Shown here: piece after piece, positions 1,630-26,567 of the stretch
Layout: each line of letters opens with the position of its first letter
Numbering within the stretch: the stretch's first letter is position 1
DNA from: a virus
Direction: 5' to 3' (one strand)
IMG/VR virus record: IMGVR_UViG_3300029822_000002
Span: 66,107 to 94,286 of that record
DNA: 28,180 nt
Translations under genes and position numbers: made by a program
The notes under the pieces: generated by a model
The model's database searches: none
The model's input: the letters and a program-made list of their open reading frames with translations, nothing else
What the model was told of the DNA's origin: nothing

Positions 1630-2742
1630 ATGATTTTTCGCTGGTTAAGATTAATTTTATATAAACCATATTTATTTAATGTTAATAAGTATGGTGATTT
1701 ATTGCGCAAATGTATCATTAAAAATAATGTAAAATTATTCATATCTACTATTAATTTTATTAAAGATGATTATAAGAAGTATAGTTTTAAAATAGATTCT
1801 ATTGATTATATTTTTTCAAGGAAATTAGTTAGAACTGAGATATTAGATTATATTTTAGAAAATACTGATTTAAATGAGTATGATACATATCTATTAAAAA
1901 AATCTATTTATAATTATGATAATTTGAAAATGTATCATAAAATATCAAAATATTTTATAGAAAAATCAGAAAATGTAAAAATAACAATTATTAAAAGTTT
2001 AATATCAGCTTATAATAGGCATGGTAGAAAAAAAATCGAGTATAAAGATGAAATTTATAGATTATATAATACTGATTATATACATTCTATAATGTCAGTT
2101 TATCTTGATGACTTGGTTATAGAATCATGTTTTTATAATGATTTTGAATTAATAATATATTTTATAAATAATTTAAAAGTAAAATTACATGAAGATACAT
2201 TAAGAAGAATATTAATAAAAATTATAAATATTAATAAATTAGATATTATTAAAATAATTTATAAAAAAATTAAAAATATTAAATATAATGATAATTTATT
2301 ATATTCTTGTATTAATAGAAATCATAAACAAATTTTTGATTTTTTTATTGATAAATATAAAAACGAATTAAGTGATGAGTCAATTAATAATAATTTATTA
2401 TTAACAATTCAATTTAATGATATTTATTATTTTGAAAAATTATTAAAAATTGATAAAAATCCATCTATGTTTAAAAATAAATGTTTAAATTATGTAATTA
2501 ATAATATTAAAAATCCATATTTTATCGATTTATTATTAAATCATAAATATTTTAAGTTTGAAAATATTGATAATGTAAATGAAATGATTTTTATATTATT
2601 TGAAAATAAAAATAAATATATAAATATAATTAATAAGATATTAAATAATGAATACATTTTAAGTAAAATTAGTTTAGATGTTAAGAATAGATATATACCA
2701 AATTATAAACCTAAAAAAATAAAAAGAGAATATTATGAATAA
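1630..2742 (+). CDS. Hypothetical protein with degenerate ankyrin-like helical repeats
   Basis: 370 aa ORF; recurring ~30-35 aa units such as SCFYNDFELIIYFI, ININKLDIIKIIY, SCINRNHKQIFDFFI, IQFNDIYYFEKLL. The repeat family call is weak. Confidence 0.5.
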   Translation: MIFRWLRLILYKPYLFNVNKYGDLLRKCIIKNNVKLFISTINFIKDDYKKYSFKIDSIDYIFSRKLVRTEILDYILENTDLNEYDTYLLKKSIYNYDNLKMYHKISKYFIEKSENVKITIIKSLISAYNRHGRKKIEYKDEIYRLYNTDYIHSIMSVYLDDLVIESCFYNDFELIIYFINNLKVKLHEDTLRRILIKIININKLDIIKIIYKKIKNIKYNDNLLYSCINRNHKQIFDFFIDKYKNELSDESINNNLLLTIQFNDIYYFEKLLKIDKNPSMFKNKCLNYVINNIKNPYFIDLLLNHKYFKFENIDNVNEMIFILFENKNKYINIINKILNNEYILSKISLDVKNRYIPNYKPKKIKREYYE

Positions 2743-3838
2743 AAAAGAAATTGAACAAACATTTTTAAAATTAATTGAGTATACTTATATTTATGGTTAT
2801 GAGGATTATGTAAAAGAAAATATATTACCTAGTAATTTAAAAAAAGATCAATTTGGTAATTATTATATAAAAATTGGAGAATCAAAAACTTTATTTACTA
2901 GTCATTTAGATACAGTTGGGAAACAAAAACTTAAAGTAAATTATGAAATTTATGAAAAGGATGGACATAGATTTGTAAAAACTGATGGTAATACAATATT
3001 GGGAGCTGATGATAAAGCAGGTGTAACTATTATGTTAAATATGATAGATAATAATGTACCAGGTCTTTACTATTTTTTAATTGGTGAAGAGACAGGTGGA
3101 GCAGGATCTAGATTGTTAGCTAAGTATATGTTTAATATGTTATCTAATTATGATAGATGTATATCGTTTGATAGAAGAGGTTATGGCTCTATTATAAATA
3201 GACAAGTTGGAAAATGGTGTTGTTCTAATGATTTTGTAAATGGTTTATCAGAAGAATTCAAAAAGAATGGAATGGAATTTAAAGCTGATCCATATGGAGT
3301 AAGAACTGATTCTGCATATTTTATGGCGATTATACCAGAATGTACAAATTTATCAGTTGGATATTTTAATGAACATAAAGTAACAGAAGAACAAGATTTA
3401 GATTATCTTTTAGAATTATGTAATGTTTGTACTAAAATAAATTGGGAATCATTACCTGTTGTTAGAGAACCAGAAAATTTTGATTCAACTGAACCAGAAT
3501 ATGTACAAAAAGTAACAGATTTACCAATGTATAAATTATTTAATATTTTTGATGAAGTATATGATATAATATATGAAGAAGTTAAATTTTTATGTGCTAA
3601 TGATAATTTTTTCAAACCAGAAAAAGAAATGATTTTTTATGATAAGAATGATTTAGAGGAAACTTTAAATTTTATTGCAATTGTTCATTCTGATGGTTCT
3701 ATAACATTAAAGAAAAATGATATAAAAATAAAAATTAAAAATATAGATTCATTGAAGAAAAATAAAAAAAGATTAAAATCTATATTATCATTTAGTCATA
3801 ATTTATATATTGACGAAAAATCTATTAACTATAATTAA
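2735..3838 (+). CDS. M20/M28-family Zn metallopeptidase (paralog 1)
   Basis: SHLDT, LGADDKAG, GEE, FDRRG, TDS, NLSVGYFNEH metal-ligand motifs. Confidence 0.85.
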   Translation: MNKKEIEQTFLKLIEYTYIYGYEDYVKENILPSNLKKDQFGNYYIKIGESKTLFTSHLDTVGKQKLKVNYEIYEKDGHRFVKTDGNTILGADDKAGVTIMLNMIDNNVPGLYYFLIGEETGGAGSRLLAKYMFNMLSNYDRCISFDRRGYGSIINRQVGKWCCSNDFVNGLSEEFKKNGMEFKADPYGVRTDSAYFMAIIPECTNLSVGYFNEHKVTEEQDLDYLLELCNVCTKINWESLPVVREPENFDSTEPEYVQKVTDLPMYKLFNIFDEVYDIIYEEVKFLCANDNFFKPEKEMIFYDKNDLEETLNFIAIVHSDGSITLKKNDIKIKIKNIDSLKKNKKRLKSILSFSHNLYIDEKSINYN

Positions 3839-8387: not shown

Positions 8388-9839
<1,452 letters not shown>

Positions 9840-9849
9840 TAATAAAAGG

Positions 9850-11162
9850 GGTTATCTAACAGTTCAAAAAAATTTACAAAAATTTATAAAAAATTTATAA
9901 AAAATATAAATATGAGCATATAAATTATGTTGAAGTCATTAAAAATTAGATTATATCCAAATAAAAGTCAAGAAAATTATATAGATGATTTGCTTGGTAG
10001 TTATAGGTTTGTATATAATAAATGCTTAAATCTTAAAATAAATGCATATAATGAAGAAAATAAATCACTGGGTTTAAAAGATTTAGGTTATTATTTTCAT
10101 AATGATTTAACTAAAAACTCTGATTTTCAGTGGTTAAATAACCATAACACTAAAGTTTTAAAACAATCAATAATTAATTTATTAGATAGTTATAACAGGT
10201 TTTTTAAAGGAAATGGTTTTCCTAAATATAAATCAAGAAAAGAATTTAAACAAAGTTGTAGATTTCCAGTTGAATCAATTTCTAAGAAAAATATTTTTAC
10301 TGATAATAAAATTTCATTAACTACAAAATTAAAAAATATTAAATTTAAATCATCTAGTAAATATATAAAATACTTAAACGAACATAAAAATAATATTAAA
10401 TCTGCTACACTAACTAAAAATAAATCAGGTAATTATCATTTAAGTGTCTTAATTGATATTAAACCATCAAAATCGTTACCGAAAACAGATCAAGTGTGTG
10501 GATTGGATTTAGGAATTAAGGATTTCATAACTACGTCCGAAGGACAATCTTATGAAAATCTTAAAATTAAAAGATCCAATGAAAGAAAACTTAGAAAACT
10601 TAATCAAAATTTATCAAGAAAACAAAAAGGAAGTAAAAATAAAAATAAATCAAGGATTAAATTAGCTAAATATCATGAAAAATTAAATAACATTAAAGAA
10701 AATTATTTACATTTAATTGTTAACCAAATAATTAACGAAAACCAAGTAATTGTTATGGAAGATTTAAATGTGAAAGGTATGATGAAAAATAAAAATTTAG
10801 CAAAATCAATTCAAGAATTATCATTAAACAGATTTAAAACTATAATGTCTTATAAATCAGAATGGTATGAAAGAGATTTAGTTTTTGTCGATAGATTTTT
10901 TCCTTCAAGTAAAACTTGTAGTTGCTGTGGTTATATAAATAAAGATTTAACATTGAATGATAGAAAATGGATATGTAATCAATGTGGTTCTGTGTTAGAT
11001 AGAGATTTAAACGCCGCAATTAATATTAAAAATGAAGGATTAAAAATAAATAAAGTAGGGCACCGTTTGCCCGATTTAAAGCCTTTGGAGTGTATTGAAT
11101 TGTCAAACACGATGAATTAGGAAATTAAATATTGTCAGATTTTTACAATATTTTTTGAACGG
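9850..11162 (+). mobile_element. Non-autonomous TnpB-only insertion sequence with IS607-like ends
   Basis: GG(TT) present at both junctions (9850-9853, 11161-11164); removing the insert restores a perfect 17-bp hairpin; left-end tandem AAAAATTTAY repeats; GTTCAAAAAA / TTTTTTGAAC inverted subterminal motif; no transposase gene. Confidence 0.8.
9927..11120 (+). CDS. tnpB: RNA-guided endonuclease TnpB
   Basis: KIRLYPN N-terminus; RuvC-I GLDLG, RuvC-II MEDL, CSCCG/CNQCG Zn finger, RuvC-III DRDLNAAINI; catalytic D/E/D intact. Confidence 0.95.
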   Translation: MLKSLKIRLYPNKSQENYIDDLLGSYRFVYNKCLNLKINAYNEENKSLGLKDLGYYFHNDLTKNSDFQWLNNHNTKVLKQSIINLLDSYNRFFKGNGFPKYKSRKEFKQSCRFPVESISKKNIFTDNKISLTTKLKNIKFKSSSKYIKYLNEHKNNIKSATLTKNKSGNYHLSVLIDIKPSKSLPKTDQVCGLDLGIKDFITTSEGQSYENLKIKRSNERKLRKLNQNLSRKQKGSKNKNKSRIKLAKYHEKLNNIKENYLHLIVNQIINENQVIVMEDLNVKGMMKNKNLAKSIQELSLNRFKTIMSYKSEWYERDLVFVDRFFPSSKTCSCCGYINKDLTLNDRKWICNQCGSVLDRDLNAAINIKNEGLKINKVGHRLPDLKPLECIELSNTMN

Positions 11163-11656: not shown

Positions 11657-11719
11657 AATTATATAAAAATTGATTATATTTTTAATATATATAAATATAA
11701 ATTTAATTTATAAATATCA

Positions 11720-11747
11720 AAAAATGAGTTAATATATTTTATATATA
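11720..11747 (+). promoter_or_regulatory. Putative phage late promoter AAAAATGA-N13-ATATATA
   Basis: Same two boxes with identical spacing at 18565-18592 and 24044-24071. Confidence 0.6.
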
Positions 11748-11785: not shown

Positions 11786-14700
11786 ATGCCAATACAAGAA
11801 AAAGATTTAGGTAAATACAAAAGATCAGCTATTTATATCGAAGAGATCAACAATTCAATAATAGAATTACCAGCACAAAATGTACTGATAAATTTAGTAC
11901 CTGGTTTTTCTAAAAAAGGACCTGTTAATAGACCAGTCTATATAGATAATAGAATAGATTTTGAAAGAATATTTGGTACTGTTGATAGACAATTAGAAAG
12001 TAAAGGTTCATTCTTTCATAGAACTGTTATAAAAATGTTGGAAACTGGACCTGTTTGGGCACTTAATTTATTAAGAACTTTACCAAATAGAGATATTTTA
12101 AATTACGCATCTGTATCTACAAGTGCATTATATCCAAATTCAGATTTTACAAACTTAAAAACAGCTGATTATGAAAGATTTTTCAATAGACAAGATTTTT
12201 GGGAAAGAGATTCAGAATCATTCTTAGATGTTGTTAATGATCCAACGCCTGATAATGATAGATTAATTCATCTTACAAACATGGGTGATAAAAAAATAAC
12301 AACATTTATATTTAAATCGACACTAAGAGGGTTTGATATTACTGCTTCACAATGGTATGGTGGTGATGTAAAAGTTCCAGAATTTATACATCCAAATGAT
12401 TTAATATCAGATTATATGGTAACTGTTCTTGTATTAAGTGGTGACTGGACAAATTATAAAGATTTAAGCGTTAGTACAACATGGTCAAAATACTTTACTA
12501 CTAATGGTTTAATAACAGAAAACATTCAAGATTTTGTAAATGAAAGAAATGTTATAACATTAGGTGTATATGACGTTAGTTTAATACCTGATTTTAAAGA
12601 TATTAATGATAATGACATGTTTATTGAAAATATTATAAATAATAATACAGATAAAACTGGATTATTTTGTACATATAATAGAGATATCATACAAGACAAA
12701 AATGGATTAACTGAAAATATAGATTTAATTGGTGGAACATTAGTTGGACTTGATGTTAGTAATATAAACTTCTTATCATATAATCAATCAATTAAAGAAG
12801 ATATCGAATATTCTATAAAACATCTAGATTCTCCTAATAATACATTTGGTACTACATCTTTTGGTAATAGAACAAATGATTGGAATAACTGGACACAATC
12901 AGGAATAGAAAATGAAATTTTTAATTCTGGTACAATGTTATTATCATTTGATAGTGGAACATATATCATAAATGGAGTAGAATATGATATGTCTGCTCTA
13001 AGTATGAGTAATAGTGTCACTATAAGTAATGTTACTGTTGGAAATCAAAGAAAAGATGTTATATATTTAGATTCAACCGGTTTAAATGTTATGAATGGTT
13101 TAGAAAATTTATCAGGCGAAACATTTATAAATAGATCAATAACATTTGATAATAATAATACAATAATACTTGGAACATTAGAACTACAAAATAGCGGTGG
13201 TACATATATTCATTCATTTGATTATATCACTGAAAGTAATGATTTAAATACAATTGGTATAACAGCAACAGACGAAACAGATTATATTAAAATTGAATTT
13301 ATAGGAACTAGTGGAACAACAATATCTAATAATGAATATTTTAAATTGAGATTACAAAAGATATATAATGAAATATCTACTAATTTACAATTAAATAAAG
13401 GTGTTATTATTAACACTGATGGATTAAATAAAACTGAAATAATAGATATTAATTCATTGTCTTATACATCATCTAATAATTCACAAATTCATATATATGT
13501 TGATACACCTGCTGATTATATAAATTCTGGTAATATTTTATTATATTATATCGATGATGAATTTATATTAAGTAGTAATACAAATGAATTTGTTACAAAA
13601 TATGATAGTGATGTAAATGTTGTAGCTAAATATTCTAAATTTTATGAAGATTATTTTAACGGTATAATATCAAATGGAGATTATATTGATTATTTAGGTA
13701 CTAAAATTAAAATAAATATGTATCTAAATACTAATGATATATTAACTGTTAAAATAGAAGAATTTATTAATGGTAGTGCTGGTATAACAGTATCATCTGA
13801 TATTGGAAATTGGAAACAAACATTAGAAATAGAAGATTTAATAATAGAAGATGAAACAAATACCGTATCTATAAGAATTAATAAAGATAGATATTCTGAA
13901 ATTAAAAGAAATATGTATGTAGAAGCATATTATGACGAAGATGACACTACAACAGTACATAGAAAATTAACAAGAATAATAGATGTTAAGAATGATCCAG
14001 ACAATACGGATTTTAAAATTATTTATACTGATGCACCAATAGCAATTAAACATATTGATGGTTCAAGTAGATTATATACAATTGTTTATCCACCAGTTTA
14101 TCAATATGTTACTACATTGAAAGGTGTGGCATTAAAACCATTTGTTATTCATCAAGATTCTATACCTGATGGTACAGAGAATAGACAAAATAATATTTTA
14201 AATGTTATTTCTAAAAATACTTCACTGTATAATGGTTTAGTTAATAAGAATAAAATAAGTTGGAGATATTTAATTGATTCATTTGGTTTAGGATTAACAC
14301 AAAATTCAAAACAACAATATTTGGATCTTTGTGGTAAGAAACTAAATTGTTTTGGTTTTATAAATATGCCAAGTGCTAAACAATTTAAAAAATCAATAAA
14401 CCCAAGTTTTGTTAATGATGATGGATCATTAAATACCGAATATATTAAGAATGGTGCAAATGAAGATAAAAACCCAAATTTCAGATATACTTTTGGACAA
14501 GGTGTTGGTAGATCAACAGTTGGTTATTTCTTCCCATATGTTAGAGTAACAGAAGATAATATAACTAGATTTGTTCCACCTGCAGCAAATGTAGCAACTG
14601 CATATATGAGAAAATTCACTACTAGTGCTTCTGGTGTATATCCACATACAATAGTAGCCGGTGTTAATATGGGTAGAATACCTGACATAGCAGGAACAGA

Positions 14701-15160
14701 AATGGACTTTACTGATAATGATTTAGATAATTTATCAGATATGGGATGTAATCCAATTATGTTTATTAGAAATGTTGGTTATATAATAAGCGAAGAAAGC
14801 ACTGCTGAAGTTTTTCCTGTATCTAGCTTAAGTTACATACATTCAAGAGAAGTATTAATTGAACTTGAAAATGAATTATATGACATGTTATTAAGATATC
14901 AATGGAAATTCAATACACCTGGAATAAGAGCAGAAATAAAGTATAGAGCTGACATGATATGTCAAAGATATGTTGATATAGATGCATTATATGATTATAA
15001 GAATATATGTGACGAAACAAATAATACTAATTATATAATAGATTTACAGGGTGGAGTATTAGATACACATATTGAGATAATTAAAGGAATGGGATGGATT
15101 GTTAATAATATCACGATTGAAAAAACAGGTGGTATTAGTTCATCAGGTTTCCAACAATAA
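11786..15160 (+). CDS. Contractile tail sheath protein (T4 gp18-like) with large central insertion domains
   Basis: 1124 aa; AIYIEE...VPGFSKKGPVNRPV N-terminus; FFPYV..VPPAA, CNPI, SLSYIHSREVL and VLDTHIE in the C-terminal sheath domain; upstream of tube gene. Confidence 0.85.
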   Translation: MPIQEKDLGKYKRSAIYIEEINNSIIELPAQNVLINLVPGFSKKGPVNRPVYIDNRIDFERIFGTVDRQLESKGSFFHRTVIKMLETGPVWALNLLRTLPNRDILNYASVSTSALYPNSDFTNLKTADYERFFNRQDFWERDSESFLDVVNDPTPDNDRLIHLTNMGDKKITTFIFKSTLRGFDITASQWYGGDVKVPEFIHPNDLISDYMVTVLVLSGDWTNYKDLSVSTTWSKYFTTNGLITENIQDFVNERNVITLGVYDVSLIPDFKDINDNDMFIENIINNNTDKTGLFCTYNRDIIQDKNGLTENIDLIGGTLVGLDVSNINFLSYNQSIKEDIEYSIKHLDSPNNTFGTTSFGNRTNDWNNWTQSGIENEIFNSGTMLLSFDSGTYIINGVEYDMSALSMSNSVTISNVTVGNQRKDVIYLDSTGLNVMNGLENLSGETFINRSITFDNNNTIILGTLELQNSGGTYIHSFDYITESNDLNTIGITATDETDYIKIEFIGTSGTTISNNEYFKLRLQKIYNEISTNLQLNKGVIINTDGLNKTEIIDINSLSYTSSNNSQIHIYVDTPADYINSGNILLYYIDDEFILSSNTNEFVTKYDSDVNVVAKYSKFYEDYFNGIISNGDYIDYLGTKIKINMYLNTNDILTVKIEEFINGSAGITVSSDIGNWKQTLEIEDLIIEDETNTVSIRINKDRYSEIKRNMYVEAYYDEDDTTTVHRKLTRIIDVKNDPDNTDFKIIYTDAPIAIKHIDGSSRLYTIVYPPVYQYVTTLKGVALKPFVIHQDSIPDGTENRQNNILNVISKNTSLYNGLVNKNKISWRYLIDSFGLGLTQNSKQQYLDLCGKKLNCFGFINMPSAKQFKKSINPSFVNDDGSLNTEYIKNGANEDKNPNFRYTFGQGVGRSTVGYFFPYVRVTEDNITRFVPPAANVATAYMRKFTTSASGVYPHTIVAGVNMGRIPDIAGTEMDFTDNDLDNLSDMGCNPIMFIRNVGYIISEESTAEVFPVSSLSYIHSREVLIELENELYDMLLRYQWKFNTPGIRAEIKYRADMICQRYVDIDALYDYKNICDETNNTNYIIDLQGGVLDTHIEIIKGMGWIVNNITIEKTGGISSSGFQQ

Positions 15161-15257: not shown

Positions 15258-18182
15258 ATGGATAGGAAAAATAAATTTATAAAGTTATCAAATGAAAAAC
15301 ATAATAATTTCTATAAATATGATAAAATTAACTATATAAATAATAAAACTAAAGTAATAATTACTTGTCCAATTCATGGTGATTTTGAACAATGCCCATC
15401 TTCTCATTTGAAAGGTTATGGGTGTAGGAAATGTGCAAATGATAAAAAAAGATTAAATAAGGATGATGTTTTAGTTAGATTAAATTCTATTCATAACAAT
15501 AAATATAAATATACTGATTTAATATTTAATAAAAATAGTGATAAAATAAAAATAATATGTCCAGTTCACGGTGAGTTTAAACAAATATTATCAGATCATT
15601 TAAGTGGAAGAGGTTGTCCTGTTTGTGGTGGTACAAAACCTAAAGATATTTATGAATTTATTAAAAAATCTAATAATATACATAATTATAAATATGATTA
15701 TATTAATTTTAAATATGTTAATAATAAAACAAATGGTATAATAATATGCCCTGTTCACGGAGAGTTTAAACAAAGTCCAAATATACATTTAAGGGGGTTT
15801 GGTTGTCCAGAATGTAAAACAAGAAAATCAAATACGACAGAATATATAGAAAAAGCAAAAATAGTACATAATAATTATTATACATATAATAATTCTAATT
15901 ATAATGGTAGTGATAAGTATATAATTATAACATGTCCAATTCATGGAGATTTTAAACAAAGAGCAGCTGGTCATTTACAAGGGTTTGGTTGTAGTAAATG
16001 CAATAAGAGTAAAGGAGAAATTAAAATTGAAAAATTTTTAATTGATAATAATATAAAATACGAAACCCAAAAATATTTAGAAGGGTGCGATAATATTAAT
16101 AAATTATATTTTGATTTTTATTTACCTTTATATAATCTATGTATAGAATATGATGGTGAATTTCATTATAAAAAAATATTTGAAAATAATGATATAAATA
16201 AACAAATAGAAAGAGATAGTATTAAAAATGAATATTGTAAAATTAATAATATTAAATTAATTAGAGTATCATATAAAGATTTTAAAAATATTGATAAAAT
16301 TTTAAAAAACAATTTATTTATGAATAATATGTTAGAACAACCTGATCCATCTGGTAAATTATCAAAAGAATCATATTTAAAATTAAATTATAATGAATTA
16401 TATTTAAATATAATAGATTATAGTAAAAACAATAATATTGAATCAATACCTTTTAAAGAAAAAGTTTATTGTTATAAACATAATATTATTCCTCCTAAAT
16501 GTAACAATCCAAATTGTGATAATAACGTTAAGTTTAAAAATTCTACATTTGGTTATAAACATTACTGCTCAATTAAGTGTATTAGTTCTGATCCAAATAT
16601 TAAAGAAATAAAAAAACAAAAATCTTTAGAAAAATTTGGTACTAAAACACCTGCAGAATCTCAGATAATTAAAGATAAAATTATTAAAACTAATAACAAT
16701 AAGTATGGTTATAATTGTTCATTACAGAATGAAGATATAAAGGAAAAAAGTAAAAAAACTTTAATGAAAAATTACGGTGTTGATGTACCATTAAAATCTT
16801 CTATTATACAGAAGAGAAGAATAGATAATTTTGATGTTAAAAAGTGGCGTAAAAAATTTGAAGAAACGATGTTGGAAAAATATGGAGTTAAGCATGCATT
16901 ACAATCAGATATAATCAAAGAAAAAATTAAAAATACAAATATAAATAAGTATGGTGAAGATAATCCAAATAAAGTTAAAAAAATTATTGATAAACGATTA
17001 AATAGTAGAGATGAAAATACATGGCAAAAAAATCTAAAAAATACAATGTTAGATAGATACGGTGTTTCTAATGCAATGAACATTGAAAAATTTAGAAAAA
17101 ATATATCATTAACACAAAGATTAAAGGAAAAAGAAAATAATAATTTAATATTAGATATTGATATAGATAATAAACAATATATAATGAAATGTGATTGCAA
17201 TAAAGATCATAATTTTGAAATATCTTTCCCTTTATATAAAAGTAGAAAACAATTTAATTATAAGTATTGCACAGTGTGTTATCCACCTTATAAAAATAAT
17301 ATATCACAATTAGAAGTAGATTTATTAAATTTTATAAAAGAAAATTATAACGGTAAAATAATAGAAAATTCAAAAAATATCATTCCACCTTATGAACTAG
17401 ATGTTTATTTACCTGACTTAAAAGTAGCATTTGAATTTAACGGTGTTTATTGGCATAATGAATTAAATAAACCAAATGACTACCATAAAACAAAAACTGA
17501 TATGTGTTTAGAAAAAAATATTCAATTAATTCATATCTATGAAGACGAATGGGTTTATAAACAGGAAATAGTCAAATCAATGATATTAAATAAATTAAAT
17601 AAGACTAAATATAAAATATTTGCAAGAAAATGTCAGATAAAAGAAATAACTGATAATAATTTGATAAGAAAATTTTTAAATTCTAATCATATTCAGGGTT
17701 TTATTGGTTCAAAAATTAAAATTGGTTTATTTTATAATAATAAACTGGTTAGTTTAATGACATTTGGCCAGTTAAGGAGAAACATGAATTTAAAATCATC
17801 AATTAATAATTTTGAAATGTTAAGATTCTGTAATAAATTAAATACCAATGTTATTGGAGGAGCATCAAAGTTATTTAAATATTTTATAAATAAATATAAA
17901 CCAGAACAAGTTATAAGTTATGCAGATAGAAGTTATAGTAGTGGGTATTTATACTACAAATTAGGATTTGATATGTTAAGTATAACAAAACCAAATTATT
18001 ATTATGTTATTGATGATATCAGAAGATATAGATTTGATTTTAGAAAAGATATTTTAGTTAAACAAGGATATGATAAAAATATGACAGAGCATGATATAAT
18101 GTTAGAAAGAAAAATTTATAGAATTTATAATTCAGGTAATTATAAATTTTTATATATAAATAAAAATAAAAATAAAAGATGA
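15258..18182 (+). CDS. Homing-endonuclease-like fusion: 4 Zn-binding CPxHG repeats, Vsr/EDxHD-like nuclease, KYG repeats, second nuclease, GNAT-like tail
   Basis: 4x CPxHGxFxQxxxxHLxGxGCxxC; FDFYLP..IEYDGEFH; repeated (E/N)KYGV; ELDVYLP..FEFNGVYWH..IYEDEW; RFC..GGASKLF..SYADR..GYLYYKLGF. Confidence 0.75.
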   Translation: MDRKNKFIKLSNEKHNNFYKYDKINYINNKTKVIITCPIHGDFEQCPSSHLKGYGCRKCANDKKRLNKDDVLVRLNSIHNNKYKYTDLIFNKNSDKIKIICPVHGEFKQILSDHLSGRGCPVCGGTKPKDIYEFIKKSNNIHNYKYDYINFKYVNNKTNGIIICPVHGEFKQSPNIHLRGFGCPECKTRKSNTTEYIEKAKIVHNNYYTYNNSNYNGSDKYIIITCPIHGDFKQRAAGHLQGFGCSKCNKSKGEIKIEKFLIDNNIKYETQKYLEGCDNINKLYFDFYLPLYNLCIEYDGEFHYKKIFENNDINKQIERDSIKNEYCKINNIKLIRVSYKDFKNIDKILKNNLFMNNMLEQPDPSGKLSKESYLKLNYNELYLNIIDYSKNNNIESIPFKEKVYCYKHNIIPPKCNNPNCDNNVKFKNSTFGYKHYCSIKCISSDPNIKEIKKQKSLEKFGTKTPAESQIIKDKIIKTNNNKYGYNCSLQNEDIKEKSKKTLMKNYGVDVPLKSSIIQKRRIDNFDVKKWRKKFEETMLEKYGVKHALQSDIIKEKIKNTNINKYGEDNPNKVKKIIDKRLNSRDENTWQKNLKNTMLDRYGVSNAMNIEKFRKNISLTQRLKEKENNNLILDIDIDNKQYIMKCDCNKDHNFEISFPLYKSRKQFNYKYCTVCYPPYKNNISQLEVDLLNFIKENYNGKIIENSKNIIPPYELDVYLPDLKVAFEFNGVYWHNELNKPNDYHKTKTDMCLEKNIQLIHIYEDEWVYKQEIVKSMILNKLNKTKYKIFARKCQIKEITDNNLIRKFLNSNHIQGFIGSKIKIGLFYNNKLVSLMTFGQLRRNMNLKSSINNFEMLRFCNKLNTNVIGGASKLFKYFINKYKPEQVISYADRSYSSGYLYYKLGFDMLSITKPNYYYVIDDIRRYRFDFRKDILVKQGYDKNMTEHDIMLERKIYRIYNSGNYKFLYINKNKNKR

Positions 18183-18538
18183 AAAATATTAAAATGTTTA
18201 ATGATTTTAATTTATTTGAAAATATTAAATTAAATGATGATGAAAAAAAATATTTATGGTCTAAAATAGAATATAGAAAAAAGAAGAATGCTATAGAACA
18301 AGAGAATGATTTATTTAATTTATTAAATGGAAATAAAAAATCTTTTAACAATGATGAATTTAATTTAATTTTAAACTCACTAGAATATACTTTTAGAAAA
18401 AAATTAAAAAGACAAGACAAGCCAATTGATAATGAATATTTTATGAGTATATCAGATAAAATTCCAGATGATTGGGTAGGTATTAAATATTCATCTATAG
18501 ATGCTAAAAATAAGAAAGATCAAAAAGATAAAAAATAA
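18179..18538 (+). CDS. Hypothetical protein with CTS-like N-terminus
   Basis: 119 aa ORF starting MKNIKMFNDFNLFE. Confidence 0.7.
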   Translation: MKNIKMFNDFNLFENIKLNDDEKKYLWSKIEYRKKKNAIEQENDLFNLLNGNKKSFNNDEFNLILNSLEYTFRKKLKRQDKPIDNEYFMSISDKIPDDWVGIKYSSIDAKNKKDQKDKK

Positions 18539-18564
18539 GTATTATTTTTTTATATATAGTATAT

Positions 18565-18592
18565 AAAAATGATAAAATATATTTAATATATA
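18565..18592 (+). promoter_or_regulatory. Putative phage late promoter AAAAATGA-N13-ATATATA
   Basis: Nearly identical to the sheath upstream element (AAAAATGAnnnAATATATTTwATATATA). Confidence 0.6.
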
Positions 18593-21150: not shown

Positions 21151-22032
21151 ATGCGAACAATTCATTTTTTCGACTTAGATGATACATTATGGAAAATAAA
21201 TGGTAATGTATGGATAATAAATAAAAATAATCCAAGTAAACCAATTATAAAATTAAATAAAATAGAATTATATGATATATTATCTGGAATACATATAAAT
21301 GATGAAATAAAGATAGATTATAATGGTAATACATATTGGATTAGTGAAAATATGTTTAACAAAATTAAAAAAAGATATCCAAATATATCAGAAGATCAAA
21401 TAGGTATATCTTTTATAGAATTTACAAATCCTTATATTATTAATAAAATATCTATATTTAGAGAAAATATAAGACATATAATAGGCAATAAAGATGATGA
21501 AATTGGTATCTTATCAGCTAGATATAGTGAAGAAAACGATAACTTATTATTATCCGCATTAAAAAAAGAATTAGAAAATAATGGTTTATTTATTGATAAA
21601 TTCTATTATGTAGGTGATTTTTTTAAAAGTAAAGTTAATGATGATATTGCATATAAAAAATCAAATGTAATATTAGAACATTTAATAGGGTTTAAAATAA
21701 AAAATGATCATTTCTTACCAATAAAACAAGATAAATATGATATTATTTATTTTTATGATGATGAATTTAAAAATATACAAGTAGCAAATGAAATTCAAAT
21801 ATTACTAGAAGAATATTTAAGAAATACTGAAGATGAAGTGTTTAATAGAATAATGAAATTATTAGAAACATCTAAACCCATATTATATAATAACTTAATA
21901 ACAAATAATAGTTTAAATAGATTTAAAACAACTAAAGTAGAATTAACAAAACCTATTACTTTCCCTATTAAAATAGAAGAAAGTTATAATATATTAAAAT
22001 TCAGTCAATTTAAAAATGATACTAAATTATAA
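21151..22032 (+). CDS. HAD-superfamily phosphatase (RNA-repair-type HAD-like)
   Basis: HFFDLDDTLW (DxD), ILSAR, YKK, FYDDEFKN. Confidence 0.75.
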   Translation: MRTIHFFDLDDTLWKINGNVWIINKNNPSKPIIKLNKIELYDILSGIHINDEIKIDYNGNTYWISENMFNKIKKRYPNISEDQIGISFIEFTNPYIINKISIFRENIRHIIGNKDDEIGILSARYSEENDNLLLSALKKELENNGLFIDKFYYVGDFFKSKVNDDIAYKKSNVILEHLIGFKIKNDHFLPIKQDKYDIIYFYDDEFKNIQVANEIQILLEEYLRNTEDEVFNRIMKLLETSKPILYNNLITNNSLNRFKTTKVELTKPITFPIKIEESYNILKFSQFKNDTKL

Positions 22033-22672
22033 TAAATTTATTAGTGAGAAACTTAGTATTTTTGGTGAAATGAAAAATTTAGCCGGTAAATTTTTATATT
22101 CAACATCAGGTGATACAAAAAAATCAGTTGAATTATTTATTAATAAATTAAATAATTCTAAAGATATAGATAATATGGAAAAAATATTTTTAAATTATCT
22201 TAAAAATAATAATCAAACATTAAAGGAATTATTAAAAGAAACAGATAATATAGAAGATATAAAAAATATATTTAAGGATAATTTATCATTTATTTATATA
22301 TCATTAAAATCATTTATATCATTTATAAATAAGAAAGAATATAATATATCAAATGTATTCAAAGATTCAAATAATAGTAATATTAAAAGATTATTTGTAG
22401 ATGATGAAAAAGTATTTAATAAAAATATTAATGGATTTGTTGATTTGTTTATTTTAGATTTATCTAAATCGCTTAATTTAAATACCAACAAAGGTCAAAA
22501 AGACGAAGAATTAGACAATATTATATCAAATGTGGATAAAGATTTGTTAAATGATATTAATGATATAAAAACGATTGAAATAGAAGAAGATTTAATAAAA
22601 TTAAAAAGTAATATTTTAAATTGGTTTAATATTAATATTATTAATAAAATTATTAATAATTTGAAACTATAA
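22016..22672 (+). CDS. Hypothetical protein with CTS-like N-terminus
   Basis: 218 aa ORF starting MILNYNKFISE. Confidence 0.7.
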   Translation: MILNYNKFISEKLSIFGEMKNLAGKFLYSTSGDTKKSVELFINKLNNSKDIDNMEKIFLNYLKNNNQTLKELLKETDNIEDIKNIFKDNLSFIYISLKSFISFINKKEYNISNVFKDSNNSNIKRLFVDDEKVFNKNINGFVDLFILDLSKSLNLNTNKGQKDEELDNIISNVDKDLLNDINDIKTIEIEEDLIKLKSNILNWFNINIINKIINNLKL

Positions 22673-22701
22673 TTTTAAAAATAAGTAAAATAGAAAAGTT
22701 T

Positions 22702-22742
22702 AATAAAATTTCCTAATAAAATTAAGGAAATTTTATTTTTTT
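22702..22742 (+). terminator. Probable intrinsic terminator
   Basis: AATAAAATTTCCT...AGGAAATTTTATT 13-bp stem plus T run. Confidence 0.55.
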
Positions 22743-22802
22743 AAATAAAACATTATTAAATAATAGATATATATAAGAATATTAAAAAAATAAAATGATT
22801 TT

Positions 22803-24026
22803 ATGAATTTTAATGAATTAAAAAAAATGACAACTAGTAATTTTGAATTTGATAATATAACTTTAAATGTTTTAAGATCTAATGGAAGAAGTAAAAATCC
22901 AGAAGATATTAATATGTTAGAAATATTTTATCAAAAATATAATAATAATCCTAATTTATATAGAATAATATCCAATTCTGGTCATTATTTTGATTGGGAT
23001 AAGATAGAAATTGGACTAAGAGAATTATATCCAGACATAAAATATTATTTTAAAGATGCTTATTATAATTTATCATTAGATAAACAATACAACAGAGAAA
23101 AAATATATGATTTTGGTAACGGTGTTATTTGTTTATTGAGTGGAGGTATACCACAAGATTTTTATCTTATTAATCACAATGTAGATAATGTTAATTTAAT
23201 ATGTTCAGATAATCTATTTTTGGTTAATGGTGAATTTGATGATTTTCATAAAATTATTGAATTGTTTAATAACAATATAATAGAGGAAGTTACAAATATA
23301 ACAATTGGTATGGTATCTTATGATGATGGCAATTTTTATGTTAAAGATTTTGATATAAATAATAAAAAAGTAGAATTAGTAGAACTAGATTTACATTATG
23401 GTGATGGATTTATAGATTTTAATGATAAATTATTAGAAAGATTAAATAATGATACAAAAGGTTTAACACTATTTCATGGTGTGGCTGGATCCGGTAAAAC
23501 TACCTATATCAGATACTTACTTAGAAAAATTAAAGAATTAAATAAAGATAATAACGTATTATATTTTCCTCCAACAATGGTAGATTCTATAACAGATCCT
23601 AGTTTTATAAATTTTATATCAGATTGGGTATCAGATAGTAAAGGGAAAAATTATATTTTTATAGAAGATGCAGAACCATTATTAGAATCCAGAGATATGA
23701 CAAGAAACATAGGGATAACAAATTTGTTAAATTTAACAGATGGTCTATTAAATGATATATTAAATATACAAGTTATTGCAACATTTAATACTAGTCCAAA
23801 AAATATTGATTTAGCATTATTAAGACCAGAAAGACTAACTGCTAGAAAGGAATTTAGAAAAGTTAAAGGTGAAAGATTAAAAAAATTATTAGAATTTTTA
23901 AATATAGATATATCTTTATCAAAAGATGAAATGACGTTAGCTGAAATATATTCATTAAAAAAGAATACAAAAACAATAACACATGATGTCGATGGTGATA
24001 GTAAAAAAATAGGTTTTGGTGGATAA
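22803..24026 (+). CDS. AAA+ ATPase
   Basis: Walker A GVAGSGKT, Walker B IFIEDAE, ATFN sensor, ALLRPERL, C-terminal KKIGF. Confidence 0.9.
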   Translation: MNFNELKKMTTSNFEFDNITLNVLRSNGRSKNPEDINMLEIFYQKYNNNPNLYRIISNSGHYFDWDKIEIGLRELYPDIKYYFKDAYYNLSLDKQYNREKIYDFGNGVICLLSGGIPQDFYLINHNVDNVNLICSDNLFLVNGEFDDFHKIIELFNNNIIEEVTNITIGMVSYDDGNFYVKDFDINNKKVELVELDLHYGDGFIDFNDKLLERLNNDTKGLTLFHGVAGSGKTTYIRYLLRKIKELNKDNNVLYFPPTMVDSITDPSFINFISDWVSDSKGKNYIFIEDAEPLLESRDMTRNIGITNLLNLTDGLLNDILNIQVIATFNTSPKNIDLALLRPERLTARKEFRKVKGERLKKLLEFLNIDISLSKDEMTLAEIYSLKKNTKTITHDVDGDSKKIGFGG

Positions 24027-24043
24027 AAGTATTAAAAATGGAA

Positions 24044-24071
24044 AAAAATGAGTTTTTTTATTAAATATATA
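24044..24071 (+). promoter_or_regulatory. Putative phage late promoter AAAAATGA-N13-ATATATA with no protein gene downstream
   Basis: AAAAATGAGTT identical to the sheath element, same spacing to ATATATA. Confidence 0.55.
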
Positions 24072-24077
24072 AATATA

Positions 24078-24215
24078 GAATTGTTATCTTCGTTAATTAT
24101 TATTAATGCAAGATAATCGTGGTAAAGGTGTAAATATAGTAACAAACTAGCTCCACTCTTCAACCACTATATATACAAGGGAAATCAGGTTAGTGCTGAT
24201 TTCCCTTCCATTTTT
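24078..24215 (+). ncRNA. Candidate structured small RNA of unknown class
   Basis: Promoter-like element upstream, three consecutive stems, GC content above background, ends in a 12-bp hairpin plus T run. Confidence 0.45.
24177..24215 (+). terminator. Intrinsic terminator-like hairpin
   Basis: AAGGGAAATCAG-7nt-CTGATTTCCCTT then CCATTTTT. Confidence 0.65.
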
Positions 24216-24234
24216 ATAAGATAAAATAAATTTA

Positions 24235-24270
24235 AAAAAACGATATAAATCATTATTTATATCGTTTTTT
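24235..24270. terminator. Bidirectional terminator at the +/- convergence
   Basis: AAAAAACGATATAAAT-CATT-ATTTATATCGTTTTTT perfect 16-bp stem. Confidence 0.8.
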
Positions 24271-24290
24271 AAATACTTTTGAATATTTAT

Positions 24291-24539
24291 TTATTCGGTA
24301 TATACTAATTTAGTAACTATTTTTCTATATCCTGATTCTAAAACCCATTGAGAACCATCCCAGTATTGATAATATAAACTACCATCATTTGAAAATCTTT
24401 GTTCTTCTGATTCATATGAATCCATCGTCCAACCATTTTCAGTACAAAATTGATTAACAGAATCATCATTTGCAACTAAATAAACATCATTTATTGCAAT
24501 ATATTGAACATTCATTGTAGGAAACTCTATAACTGCCAT
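24291..24539 (-). CDS. Hypothetical protein
   Basis: 82 aa ORF, low-Lys composition, ATATA boxes upstream. Confidence 0.75.
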   Translation of the reverse strand: MAVIEFPTMNVQYIAINDVYLVANDDSVNQFCTENGWTMDSYESEEQRFSNDGSLYYQYWDGSQWVLESGYRKIVTKLVYTE

Positions 24540-24588
24540 ATTTTAATTATTCTTTTTTTATTATATATTTTATTCTATATATTAAAAT

Positions 24589-24804
24589 TTAAATGTCTTT
24601 TTTTGATTTTCTTTTAGTTTCATGGTATGGTTTACCAATTTTATAATCAAATTTTTCTATACAATCTATGCAACATAGAAAAAAATGTGTTTCTTTATCT
24701 ATCCAAAAATATAATTTTTTATCTTTAGTAGAATCTAAACACTATTGACAAACTGGTGTTTCTGTTTTGTTCTTTTTTATTGGTTTTTTATAATCTTTTA
24801 TCAT
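24589..24804 (-). pseudogene. Small CxxC...CxxC Zn-finger-like gene with one in-frame TAG (pseudogene or readthrough)
   Basis: Manual translation MIKDYKKPIKKNKTETPVCQ*CLDSTKDKKLYFWIDKETHFFLCCIDCIEKFDYKIGKPYHETKRKSKKDI; TAG at 24742-24744; fills the gap between neighbours. Confidence 0.65.
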
Positions 24805-24811
24805 ATTTTTA

Positions 24812-25201
24812 TTATTTTATTGTCCATGTATCACCTTCATAAATTATTTCTGATTTAACACTATTTTTAAATCTACTATAATTTTGACTCCATTCCAATA
24901 ATGATTTTTTTAATTTATATAAATAATCATATCTTTCTTTGTCATTAAAGAATCTTCTTATTGAATAATTTTCATTAGGTCTATAATTAGATTCACTTGG
25001 TAATCTTATTGAATTAACACCTAACCAAAAACTATTTCTAGAATATATATAAAAATTATTCAATGAACTAGAATATGCTAATGTATCATTATTCTTTGAA
25101 ATAAATCTATCATCAAGTCCAATTAGTGTAATTTTTATTGAATAATTAGTTAAAAATTCTATTTTTAATTTTATTTTATAAATGTTTTTAAAAGATTGCA
25201 T
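24812..25201 (-). CDS. Hypothetical protein
   Basis: ORF; ATG at 25201 preferred because the 25219 TTG lies inside a promoter -7 box. Confidence 0.7.
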   Translation of the reverse strand: MQSFKNIYKIKLKIEFLTNYSIKITLIGLDDRFISKNNDTLAYSSSLNNFYIYSRNSFWLGVNSIRLPSESNYRPNENYSIRRFFNDKERYDYLYKLKKSLLEWSQNYSRFKNSVKSEIIYEGDTWTIK

Positions 25202-25216
25202 ATATTTGTTTTTTTG

Positions 25217-25248
25217 CAAATATATTAAAAAATATTTAATAAAACAAA
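25217..25248 (-). promoter_or_regulatory. Bacteroidota-type housekeeping-sigma promoter (-33/-7)
   Basis: Minus strand TTTG (25248-25245), 20 nt, TATATTTG (25224-25217). Confidence 0.7.
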
Positions 25249-26355
25249 TTAAAAATCCTTTTTATCTATAGACCACTTTAATTTATCAAATAAAAAATAT
25301 TTATCATACACTTTTCTAACTTGATCATATGTTATATCATCAATTATTTTTTCTAAATTCCAACTATCTGGTGTTATTAAATGTCTGATACTATTATACC
25401 TATTTATCTCATTTTTTTTGAATTGAACTTTATAAAAATCTTTAATAAGATCAAATCTTTCTTTTGTTAGATATTTGTCAGGATTAGATAATACCATATT
25501 ATATGTTTCTAAAACTTCATCAACTTTATCATCATCAGTTATTAATTCTGTACTTAAAAATCCATTATTATATGAATAACCATATACACTTGTACTTACA
25601 CCATAGGTTAATCCTCTTTTCTTTCTTATTTCATCCATTAATGGGGATTTCATAGATCCAGATAACATCATAGATATAAATTTAATATGAGCAAAATCAT
25701 CATCAACAAGTTTATAACCAATTATAGAACTTTTTTTGAAGTCAGCCATCTTTTCAATTATTAAATCCTTTTTATCTTCCTTTCTTATATATTTCTTATA
25801 TTCTTTATCTGAAAATATATCAAATCCTTCAAATTTATTATTTTTAGATACGTTTATAATTAAAGATGGTTTAGATAAATAATCTTTAAAATAACTTTTA
25901 ATATCATCATATGTTAGAGATTCTAAAGATTCCATTTTACCTATTGGACCATAATTACCTAATTCTTTTCTTAATATATTATAATAATGACTTGTTCCTT
26001 GATCTTGAAAAGTATCTCTATATTCTTGTATAACTACATCTCTTTCCGTTTCAAATTCTTTTTTTGGTATATTAAAATCAAGTAACATATTAACTAATTC
26101 GTGTCTATATTTATAGATATATTCATCTAATCCAGTTATATGATACACTATTTCAGTTGATGATGTGTATGCATTCCAATTTATACCATACCTGTCAAAA
26201 TCATCATATAATTTTTCAAATGATTTACACATCAAATGTTCCATTAAGTGTGATATTCCAAAATTTTTTTGTTCTTCATTCATAACTGAACCTTTATATA
26301 TTACATAAAATCCAGAAAAATCAGTCAGTGATTTTAAATTTATTATTTTACCCAT
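25249..26355 (-). CDS. M16 (insulinase-like) Zn metallopeptidase
   Basis: GISHLMEH (HxxEH), WNAYTS, ERDVVIQE, IRKKRGLTYGV. Confidence 0.9.
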   Translation of the reverse strand: MGKIINLKSLTDFSGFYVIYKGSVMNEEQKNFGISHLMEHLMCKSFEKLYDDFDRYGINWNAYTSSTEIVYHITGLDEYIYKYRHELVNMLLDFNIPKKEFETERDVVIQEYRDTFQDQGTSHYYNILRKELGNYGPIGKMESLESLTYDDIKSYFKDYLSKPSLIINVSKNNKFEGFDIFSDKEYKKYIRKEDKKDLIIEKMADFKKSSIIGYKLVDDDFAHIKFISMMLSGSMKSPLMDEIRKKRGLTYGVSTSVYGYSYNNGFLSTELITDDDKVDEVLETYNMVLSNPDKYLTKERFDLIKDFYKVQFKKNEINRYNSIRHLITPDSWNLEKIIDDITYDQVRKVYDKYFLFDKLKWSIDKKDF

Positions 26356-26375
26356 TTTTATTACTTATTTTTAGT

Positions 26376-26567
26376 TTATATATTATTTTTAATTCGTTTA
26401 AAAATTTGTTTAATTTTATTTTTTCTTTCTTCTAACAAATTAATATTTTCAAATTGTTCCGCTATTATTGAATTAACTATCATATAATTACCTCGTCCAT
26501 ATCGTTGTTTTTGGTTTATTAGGTTAGATGCTTTATTTATTTTATCAATTAGATCTTTTTTCATCAA
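26376..26567 (-). CDS. Small protein resembling an internal fragment of a T4 gp23-type major capsid protein, with C-terminal basic tag
   Basis: KINKASNLINQKQRYGRGNYMIVNSIIA recalls the gp23 segment ..IARQTGRGEGNFIIASRNVV..; ends RKNKIKQIFKRIK. Confidence 0.5.
   Translation of the reverse strand: MMKKDLIDKINKASNLINQKQRYGRGNYMIVNSIIAEQFENINLLEERKNKIKQIFKRIKNNI

Follow-up and report, generated by a model that had tools for sequence, protein, structure and literature searches.

A conserved promoter-to-terminator unit, predicted to encode a small non-coding RNA, in a clade of huge phages

Introduction

Where two gene blocks of a huge phage converge, a stretch of about 135 nt follows a promoter and ends in its own terminator with no protein gene between them, which raises the question of what this stretch encodes and what its product might do. 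The locus lies in a 28-kb window (the whole stretch of DNA analyzed here, 28,180 nt), which is the final part of a 94-kb viral fragment from IMG/VR. CheckV puts the fragment at ~13% completeness, so the phage is huge, and its closest named relatives, LR756501 and LR756503, are 735-kb uncultured phages that match the window with 68% nucleotide identity over part of an ATPase gene (42.5% protein identity). Almost everything known about huge phages comes from metagenomes, and the non-coding RNAs that they carry have hardly been charted; in literature searches, neither this RNA nor any small RNA (sRNA) family of huge phages was found described. The original prediction, made from the sequence of the window, proposed an abundant late RNA with an elaborate three-stem fold and no protein gene. 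By comparing the locus with its relatives, we conclude that it is very probably a genuine conserved non-coding unit.

Results

Gene setting and promoter

The unit lies at the junction where a plus-strand gene block, whose last member encodes a divergent AAA+ ATPase (407 aa; 22803..24026, +; Pfam AAA PF00004, E=1e-6), meets a minus-strand block that begins with a convergent 82-aa ORF (24291..24539, -), a neighbor that is also conserved. The ATPase has 936 homologues, on contigs up to 669 kb, and distant homologues are present in jumbo phages such as PA5oct and XacN1. A search by sequence for a PDB relative of the ATPase found none, and domain searches show no known RNA-binding domain in it, while the 82-aa protein belongs to no family in Pfam, PHROGs, NCBIfam, or Atlas. 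Elsewhere in the window are a tail sheath gene (11786-15160; PHROG E=1.5e-88) and, by database matches, a baseplate-hub-like ORF and a head-protease-like ORF.

Several other features of the region were recorded. On the plus strand there is a paralogous gene pair (2735-3838 and 8388-9839), both members of which match PHROG 4191 'peptidase' (E about 1e-68 and 1e-70). A 397-aa ORF (9927-11120, +) between a peptidase gene and the sheath gene matches PHROG 506 'transposase' (E=5e-114), and a 974-aa ORF (15258-18182, +), situated between the sheath gene and a 189-aa putative tube gene, strongly matches HNH/homing-endonuclease PHROGs (E=1e-153) and has several matches to zinc-ribbon/DUF7487 in Pfam. 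Outside the window, the 23-nt sequence AAAAAATCTCCCCAACTTATCCA occurs in three copies with ~200-nt spacing (G000:C1:22634-23070).

Upstream of the unit is a bipartite promoter (24045..24071, +) of the form AAAATGA (24045-24051)-N13-ATATATA (24065-24071), running on as AATATAG to 24078. There are exactly three perfect matches to AAAATGA-N13-ATATATA in the 28-kb window, all intergenic and on the plus strand: at 11721 before the sheath gene, at 18566 before the 189-aa gene, and at 24045 before the RNA unit. The unit had been described as following a sheath/tube-type promoter, and the sheath copy indeed matches with identical spacing; the tube identity of the 189-aa gene gained no confirmation from family searches. 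A T4-late-like box, TATAAATA, falls inside the downstream promoter element (24068-24075), and by itself this box is common in the AT-rich window, with 46 matches observed versus 29 expected. From its promoter, the RNA unit appears to be co-regulated with tail genes, and the words abundant and late, as first applied to the RNA, are predictions from promoter type.

Imperfect copies of the promoter are also seen. At the sheath and 189-aa genes, each perfect copy has a one-mismatch copy in tandem 34-54 nt farther upstream (11667-11693 and 18532-18558, +), and these may be double promoters. A further one-mismatch copy, AAAAAGA-N13-ATATATA at 24576-24602 (-), lies upstream of the 82-aa gene; judging by this match, the 82-aa protein, the sheath gene, and the RNA may all be part of one late regulon. 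The final codons of the ATPase gene, AAAAAAATAGGTTTTGG (24001-24017; K-K-I-G-F), resemble the upstream promoter box, AAAAAAATGAGTTTT (24044-24058).

Distribution of the unit

To collect relatives, 27 ATPase homologues were aligned, and the alignment was used to fetch their loci (here given L numbers) from IMG/VR and JGI metagenomes. The RNA unit follows the ATPase stop in every locus that has downstream sequence and an ATPase at least 52% identical, giving 22 distinct unit sequences (ATPase identity, 52-100%), all from one huge-phage clade. The unit starts 0-60 nt after the ATPase stop codon in every relative, and each comprises a bipartite promoter in which both boxes are kept, a 5' hairpin, the motif UGCAAGAUA, a core, and a terminator hairpin with a U-run. 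There are relatives whose promoter abuts the ATPase stop codon or overlaps with it; among L017-L020, the stop codon abuts the ATATATA box in some cases, which puts the upstream box within coding sequence. The unit is absent at the 45%-identity loci L024 and L025 and in the 735-kb LR756501.

With R1, a covariance model built from the core plus the terminator, each record yields a single copy and LR756501 yields none. Scanning 185,579 prokaryote genomes for the core pattern yielded 36 matches, a number estimated at about chance level, and R1 accepts only two of them, L057 (NZ_JAVESI010000051.1) and L064 (JBBAEW010000076.1). These are deposited in metagenome-assembled genomes (MAGs) of a Trichloromonas sp. 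and of Saccharofermentanales, respectively, and their lengths, 21,657 and 9,428 bases, equal those of phage contigs in IMG/VR and JGI. Both are probably phage DNA mis-binned into MAGs, and the bins are not evidence for the host. A second core pattern gave 0 matches in IMG/VR, and a blastn search of 50,697 phage records with the unit as query returned low-complexity noise only.

Fold and 5' domain

With its 5' end placed by promoter spacing, the predicted transcript is ~135 nt long (24081..24215, +). The 138 nt from 24078 to 24215 fold with -40.2 kcal/mol, versus -20.3 +/- 3.1 for 200 dinucleotide shuffles (z = -6.39), none of which is as stable. In the window the fold has three parts: a 15-bp 5'-terminal hairpin (24083..24117, +), a middle stem with interruptions, and a 12-bp hairpin with a T-run after it. 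Stem 1 of the original prediction (TTATCTT, 24084-24090, with AAGATAA, 24110-24116) was correctly placed. The alternative pairing TTGTTA/TAACAA is not kept across the family, its closing stem being absent from the nearest relative, L008.

Across relatives, the 5' domain ranges from 15 to 75 nt, and its sequences cannot be aligned, yet in most lineages it is self-complementary. Different lineages have the arm pairs ACUUUUUGU/ACAAAAAGU and UUUUACACA/UGUGUAAAA, and further lineage-specific pairs are AUUGCAUUUUUA/UAAAAAUGCAGU and AGUUUUUA/UAAAAACU. We compared duplexes formed by a domain's own two halves with those formed by permuted partners, a test of our own rather than R-scape. For 17 representatives, own halves sum to -145 kcal/mol versus -104 +/- 10 for permuted partners (p about 3.5e-4), so the hairpin persists although the sequences differ. 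When the 5' domains are aligned with MAFFT, RNAalifold finds no pairs because the arms do not align, and taken by themselves the 5' domains have modest thermodynamic z-scores (mean, -1.1). On the 3' side of the domain is the conserved motif UGCAAGAUA (24107..24115, +), which has at most two changes in 17 of the 22 units and a pairing partner that differs from lineage to lineage. The sequence-variable 5' hairpin probably shields the 5' end of the RNA.

Terminators

The unit ends in an intrinsic terminator, T1 (24177..24215, +), made up of the 12-bp hairpin (24177-24207) and a U-run (24211-24215). A terminator scan of positions 22000-26500 finds the T1 hairpin as the only site, against 0.4 expected. 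Across relatives, 96.4% of cells are paired and 7 of the 12 pairs covary, with 0 of 500 shuffles as good, and sliding the pairing partner by one column lowers pairing to 52-59%. The covariation in relatives that had been proposed as a check is therefore found in T1, and the 5' hairpin adds pairing kept through changed sequence. It is the top of the T1 hairpin that covaries; the five basal pairs, GGGAA/UUCCC, never vary. In a second, near-identical contig, one A-to-G change turns an A-U pair of T1 into G-U. The GGGAA...UUCCC hairpin form has a single occurrence in 94 kb and is thus not a generic terminator of the phage. T1 has a U-run, and since it lacks an upstream A-run and tolerates G-U pairs, it is expected to work on the plus strand only.

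A second terminator, T2 (24234..24271), is bidirectional, is shared with the convergent 82-aa gene, and is not part of the RNA, in agreement with the earlier placement of a terminal hairpin and T run separate from a bidirectional terminator; the coordinates of both hold. Relatives have an equivalent hairpin of variable sequence at this place. In one clade (L037:3683-3755 on the L006 contig, with equivalents in L015-L019), T2 likewise has the sequence GGGAAA...TTTCCC and is given 32 bits by the T1 model, which could reflect duplication of the terminator.

The conserved core and its lineage-specific mask

Between the 5' domain and T1 lies a G-free conserved core, CCACUCUUCAACCACUAUAUAUAC (24153..24176, +), consisting of two CCACUNU half-repeats and then a UAUAUAU tract. 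It directly precedes the invariant hairpin base GGGAA/UUCCC, and the block AACCACTATATAT..C(C/A)AGGGAA is near-invariant (alignment A4), compared with 35% identity in the flanks and 46% in the hairpin top, so that constraint falls on the core sequence itself. Its near-invariant part, AACCACUAUAUAUAUCC, has no G and is predicted to be mostly unpaired, and the proposed working part can be given as (C)CCACUAU..AACCACUAUAUAUAUCC. The variants AACCAUUAU and ACCCACCUAU are seen among lineages, and core length varies between lineages by indels of 1-3 nt. The predicted unpaired fraction of the core is 0.53-0.99, reaching at least 0.9 in half of the units. In the 94-kb record the core is single copy.

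The window has, in addition, a lineage-specific insert, the 'anti-core' (24119..24150, +), in which GUGGUAAAGGUG can pair with CACUCUUCAACCAC of the core to give stem 2. In the window, roughly half of the core is predicted to pair with this arm, and in both the window and L008 the arm GUGGUAAAGGUG is able to mask part of the core. The insert is present in L008, partial or weaker in L022, L019, and L010, and absent from most other lineages. Stem 2 was thus correctly located (GTGGT, 24119-24123, with ACCAC, 24163-24167) but is kept only in the closest relatives, and since it occurs in few lineages, it is a lineage feature that does not define the family. The elaborate three-stem fold of the original prediction does not describe what is conserved, namely, an unpaired sequence core and the base of the terminator.

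The core also bears on whether the locus acts as RNA at all. Its two CCACUAU half-repeats are direct and spaced by 9-11 nt, about one helical turn, with an AT tract following, and the conserved core fits a protein-binding site on RNA or on DNA equally well. Moreover, the ATPase stop and the RNA unit are not separated by a terminator, so ATPase transcripts should run into T1. The core and T1 might therefore constitute a cis element, either a 3'-UTR/terminator module of the ATPase mRNA with a role in its stability or processing or a site where protein binds the DNA, for example an iteron-like repeat or a transcription-primed origin; the promoters that abut or overlap the ATPase stop in some relatives would suit this as well. 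A conserved bipartite promoter that drives only the RNA segment is, however, hard to explain in this way, as is a 5' hairpin that compensating changes have preserved. T1 is strand specific and accepts G-U pairs, and the half-repeats number only two, in a single copy. Because of the dedicated promoter, the compensating changes, and the strand-specific terminator, we consider a cis or DNA role unlikely.

Coding capacity and known RNA classes

The only ORF in the unit is one of 14 codons (24106-24150), as first noted. A micro-protein encoded there, or in a longer frame with TAG read-through, would account for the ATG that lies within the UGCAAGAUA motif in many units, including that of the window. 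In other units, however, the corresponding triplet is GTG, GAG, AGG, or ACA or is absent, stops follow after 8-40 codons at different places, and no frame yields a conserved peptide across relatives, TAG read-through included. The core indels of 1-3 nt shift the frame and, together with the lack of a conserved start or frame, indicate that the core is not coding. A micro-protein is therefore almost certainly not what is conserved here; the possibility that a short peptide rather than structure is maintained has fallen away, and the description of a promoter-to-terminator unit without a protein gene stands.

The unit was said to be of no recognized class and not tRNA-like, and searches agree. 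Rfam 15 gives 0 matches at gathering thresholds over the whole window, and in a permissive Rfam scan of 24000-24300 no gathering score is reached, the sole match with E<0.4 covering just T2. ARAGORN finds no tRNA or transfer-messenger RNA (tmRNA) in the window or in the whole 94-kb record.

Candidate classes were also considered individually. A riboswitch, cis-acting leader, or attenuator was rejected, as no co-oriented gene lies past the terminator, where T2 is followed by minus-strand genes to the window end, with the same arrangement in relatives. A type III antitoxin (ToxI-like) was rejected because the only repeats are two 7-nt half-repeats rather than a tandem array, and a type I antitoxin because the unit does not overlap the convergent gene, from which T2 separates it. 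As for a CRISPR-repeat mimic, neither a CRISPR-like array nor another copy of the core is present in the 94-kb record.

The same downstream arrangement weighs on a further reading, that of a short transcript like lambda 6S RNA, made when a late promoter fires constitutively into a terminator ~135 nt on, which an antiterminator overrides. The ORF-less promoter-to-terminator layout and the late-type promoter are what such a transcript would have; nothing co-oriented, however, lies downstream to be reached, only T2 and then the convergent gene block to the window end, and we regard this reading as very unlikely. Of the features of a generic trans-acting sRNA ended by an intrinsic terminator, three are found: its own promoter, as judged by sequence, a covarying terminator with a U-tail, and no conserved coding capacity.

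Search for a partner

Targets for base pairing were sought in the phage. Over the 94 kb (~13% of the genome), RNAduplex picks out only the antisense strand of the locus itself; the next-best hits, at -22 kcal/mol, are inside ORFs. In 14 relatives, pairing with translation start regions of neighboring genes is not above the 5% background, and short complements of the core and of UGCAAGAUA give chance-level matches only. As the search space is ~13% of the genome and includes no host genome, these negatives are weak.

That the target search found none would nonetheless be expected if the RNA bound protein, as a decoy, sponge, scaffold, or cofactor, instead of acting as a base-pairing regulator. 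Here, an RNA-binding protein of the phage or the host would use the half-repeats and the invariant hairpin base as its platform; candidate partners are the adjacent AAA+ ATPase, which the RNA would serve as a cofactor in assembly or packaging, much like phi29 pRNA, or a titrated host factor, with the RNA as an anti-defense decoy. The two direct half-repeats with their 9-11-nt spacing suit such a platform, as does the hairpin foot, five base pairs of which are conserved in sequence, something not needed by a terminator. The promoter in common with the sheath gene suggests high late expression, and the unit invariably adjoins the ATPase gene. This adjacency, however, may reflect conserved gene order alone, and the ATPase is without a known RNA-binding domain. 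A protein-binding RNA, which the half-repeats and the hairpin base fit just as well, is the main rival to base pairing, and we judge it rather unlikely.

Discussion

The reading that we tentatively favor, at slightly less than an even chance, is a trans-acting sRNA that is separately transcribed, late, and active through its exposed core. The locus would be a self-contained non-coding RNA gene of ~135 nt, reaching from a sheath-type bipartite promoter to its own unidirectional intrinsic terminator. The G-free, mostly single-stranded core would be the constant working part, and late in infection it would base-pair with, or be bound by, a conserved partner of the phage or the host. In some lineages, that of the window included, the inserted 'anti-core' arm would partly mask the core. 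What favors a trans-acting late sRNA is the order of a 5' hairpin, an exposed stretch, and a U-tailed terminator, which is the layout of 3'-end sRNAs such as MicL and DapZ.

A bolder proposal is that the RNA accumulates late at the level of structural proteins and serves not as a classical regulator but as a ribonucleoprotein component or decoy, whether as an assembly cofactor of the ATPase or as a sponge for a host RNA-binding or defense factor. We see this as a long shot; if true, such a role would be one not described before for huge phages.

The comparative evidence delineates the promoter, terminator, and invariant core of the predicted RNA gene and thereby gives a handle on late gene regulation or host manipulation in the clade, for use in probe design, metatranscriptome mapping, and annotation by covariance model. 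By-products are a bipartite late-promoter motif ready for use and a family suitable for submission to Rfam.

Among known systems, bacterial sRNAs of the MicL and DapZ type have their own promoter at the 3' end of a gene and share its terminator. The RNA unit is similar in starting at or overlapping the upstream stop codon, in having its own promoter and a terminator in common with the mRNA, and in its succession of a 5' hairpin, a single-stranded conserved region, and a terminator hairpin with a U-tail. It differs in being phage encoded, with a phage late-type promoter, and in having no known chaperone, seed-target pair, or sequence similarity to these sRNAs.

Three phage RNAs also invite comparison. 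Lambda 6S RNA is the PR'-tR' transcript, with the lambda late genes downstream and reached by Q antitermination. It and the RNA unit share a late promoter, a terminator within 100-200 nt, and no ORF between, whereas downstream of the RNA unit there are T2 and convergent genes. The pRNA of phi29 is expressed from an early promoter and has a conserved secondary structure with interlocking loops and little sequence conservation. Like pRNA, the RNA unit would give a phage RNA in the range of ~120-170 nt that would act at virion assembly, and it adjoins an ATPase gene; in contrast to pRNA, it has a conserved sequence core and a variable 5' structure, and a link to packaging is purely hypothetical. 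T4 rnaC and rnaD are small stable RNAs of unknown function that lie in a tRNA cluster and are processed from a precursor. They likewise are small RNAs in a phage with T4-like virion genes, the RNA here being known from sequence; in contrast to theirs, the 94-kb record has no tRNA, and the unit has its own promoter and terminator.

Phage-derived sRNAs already described include lambda OOP and aQ, antisense RNAs of PAK_P4, and sRNAs of EHEC prophages (PMC12197685), and the same 2025 review also lists 38 phage sRNAs without a described function (PMC12197685). The RNA unit resembles them as a short, phage-encoded non-coding transcript, in this case a predicted one. Whereas most known phage sRNAs are antisense to a neighbor or come from temperate phages, the RNA unit overlaps no gene on the opposite strand, comes from a huge phage whose tail and head genes are T4-like, as judged by sheath, baseplate-hub, and head-protease matches, and features an unpaired core that is conserved. 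Phage-encoded sRNAs are thus a known kind, and the RNA unit represents a new predicted sRNA family within it, belonging to one AT-rich clade of huge phages.
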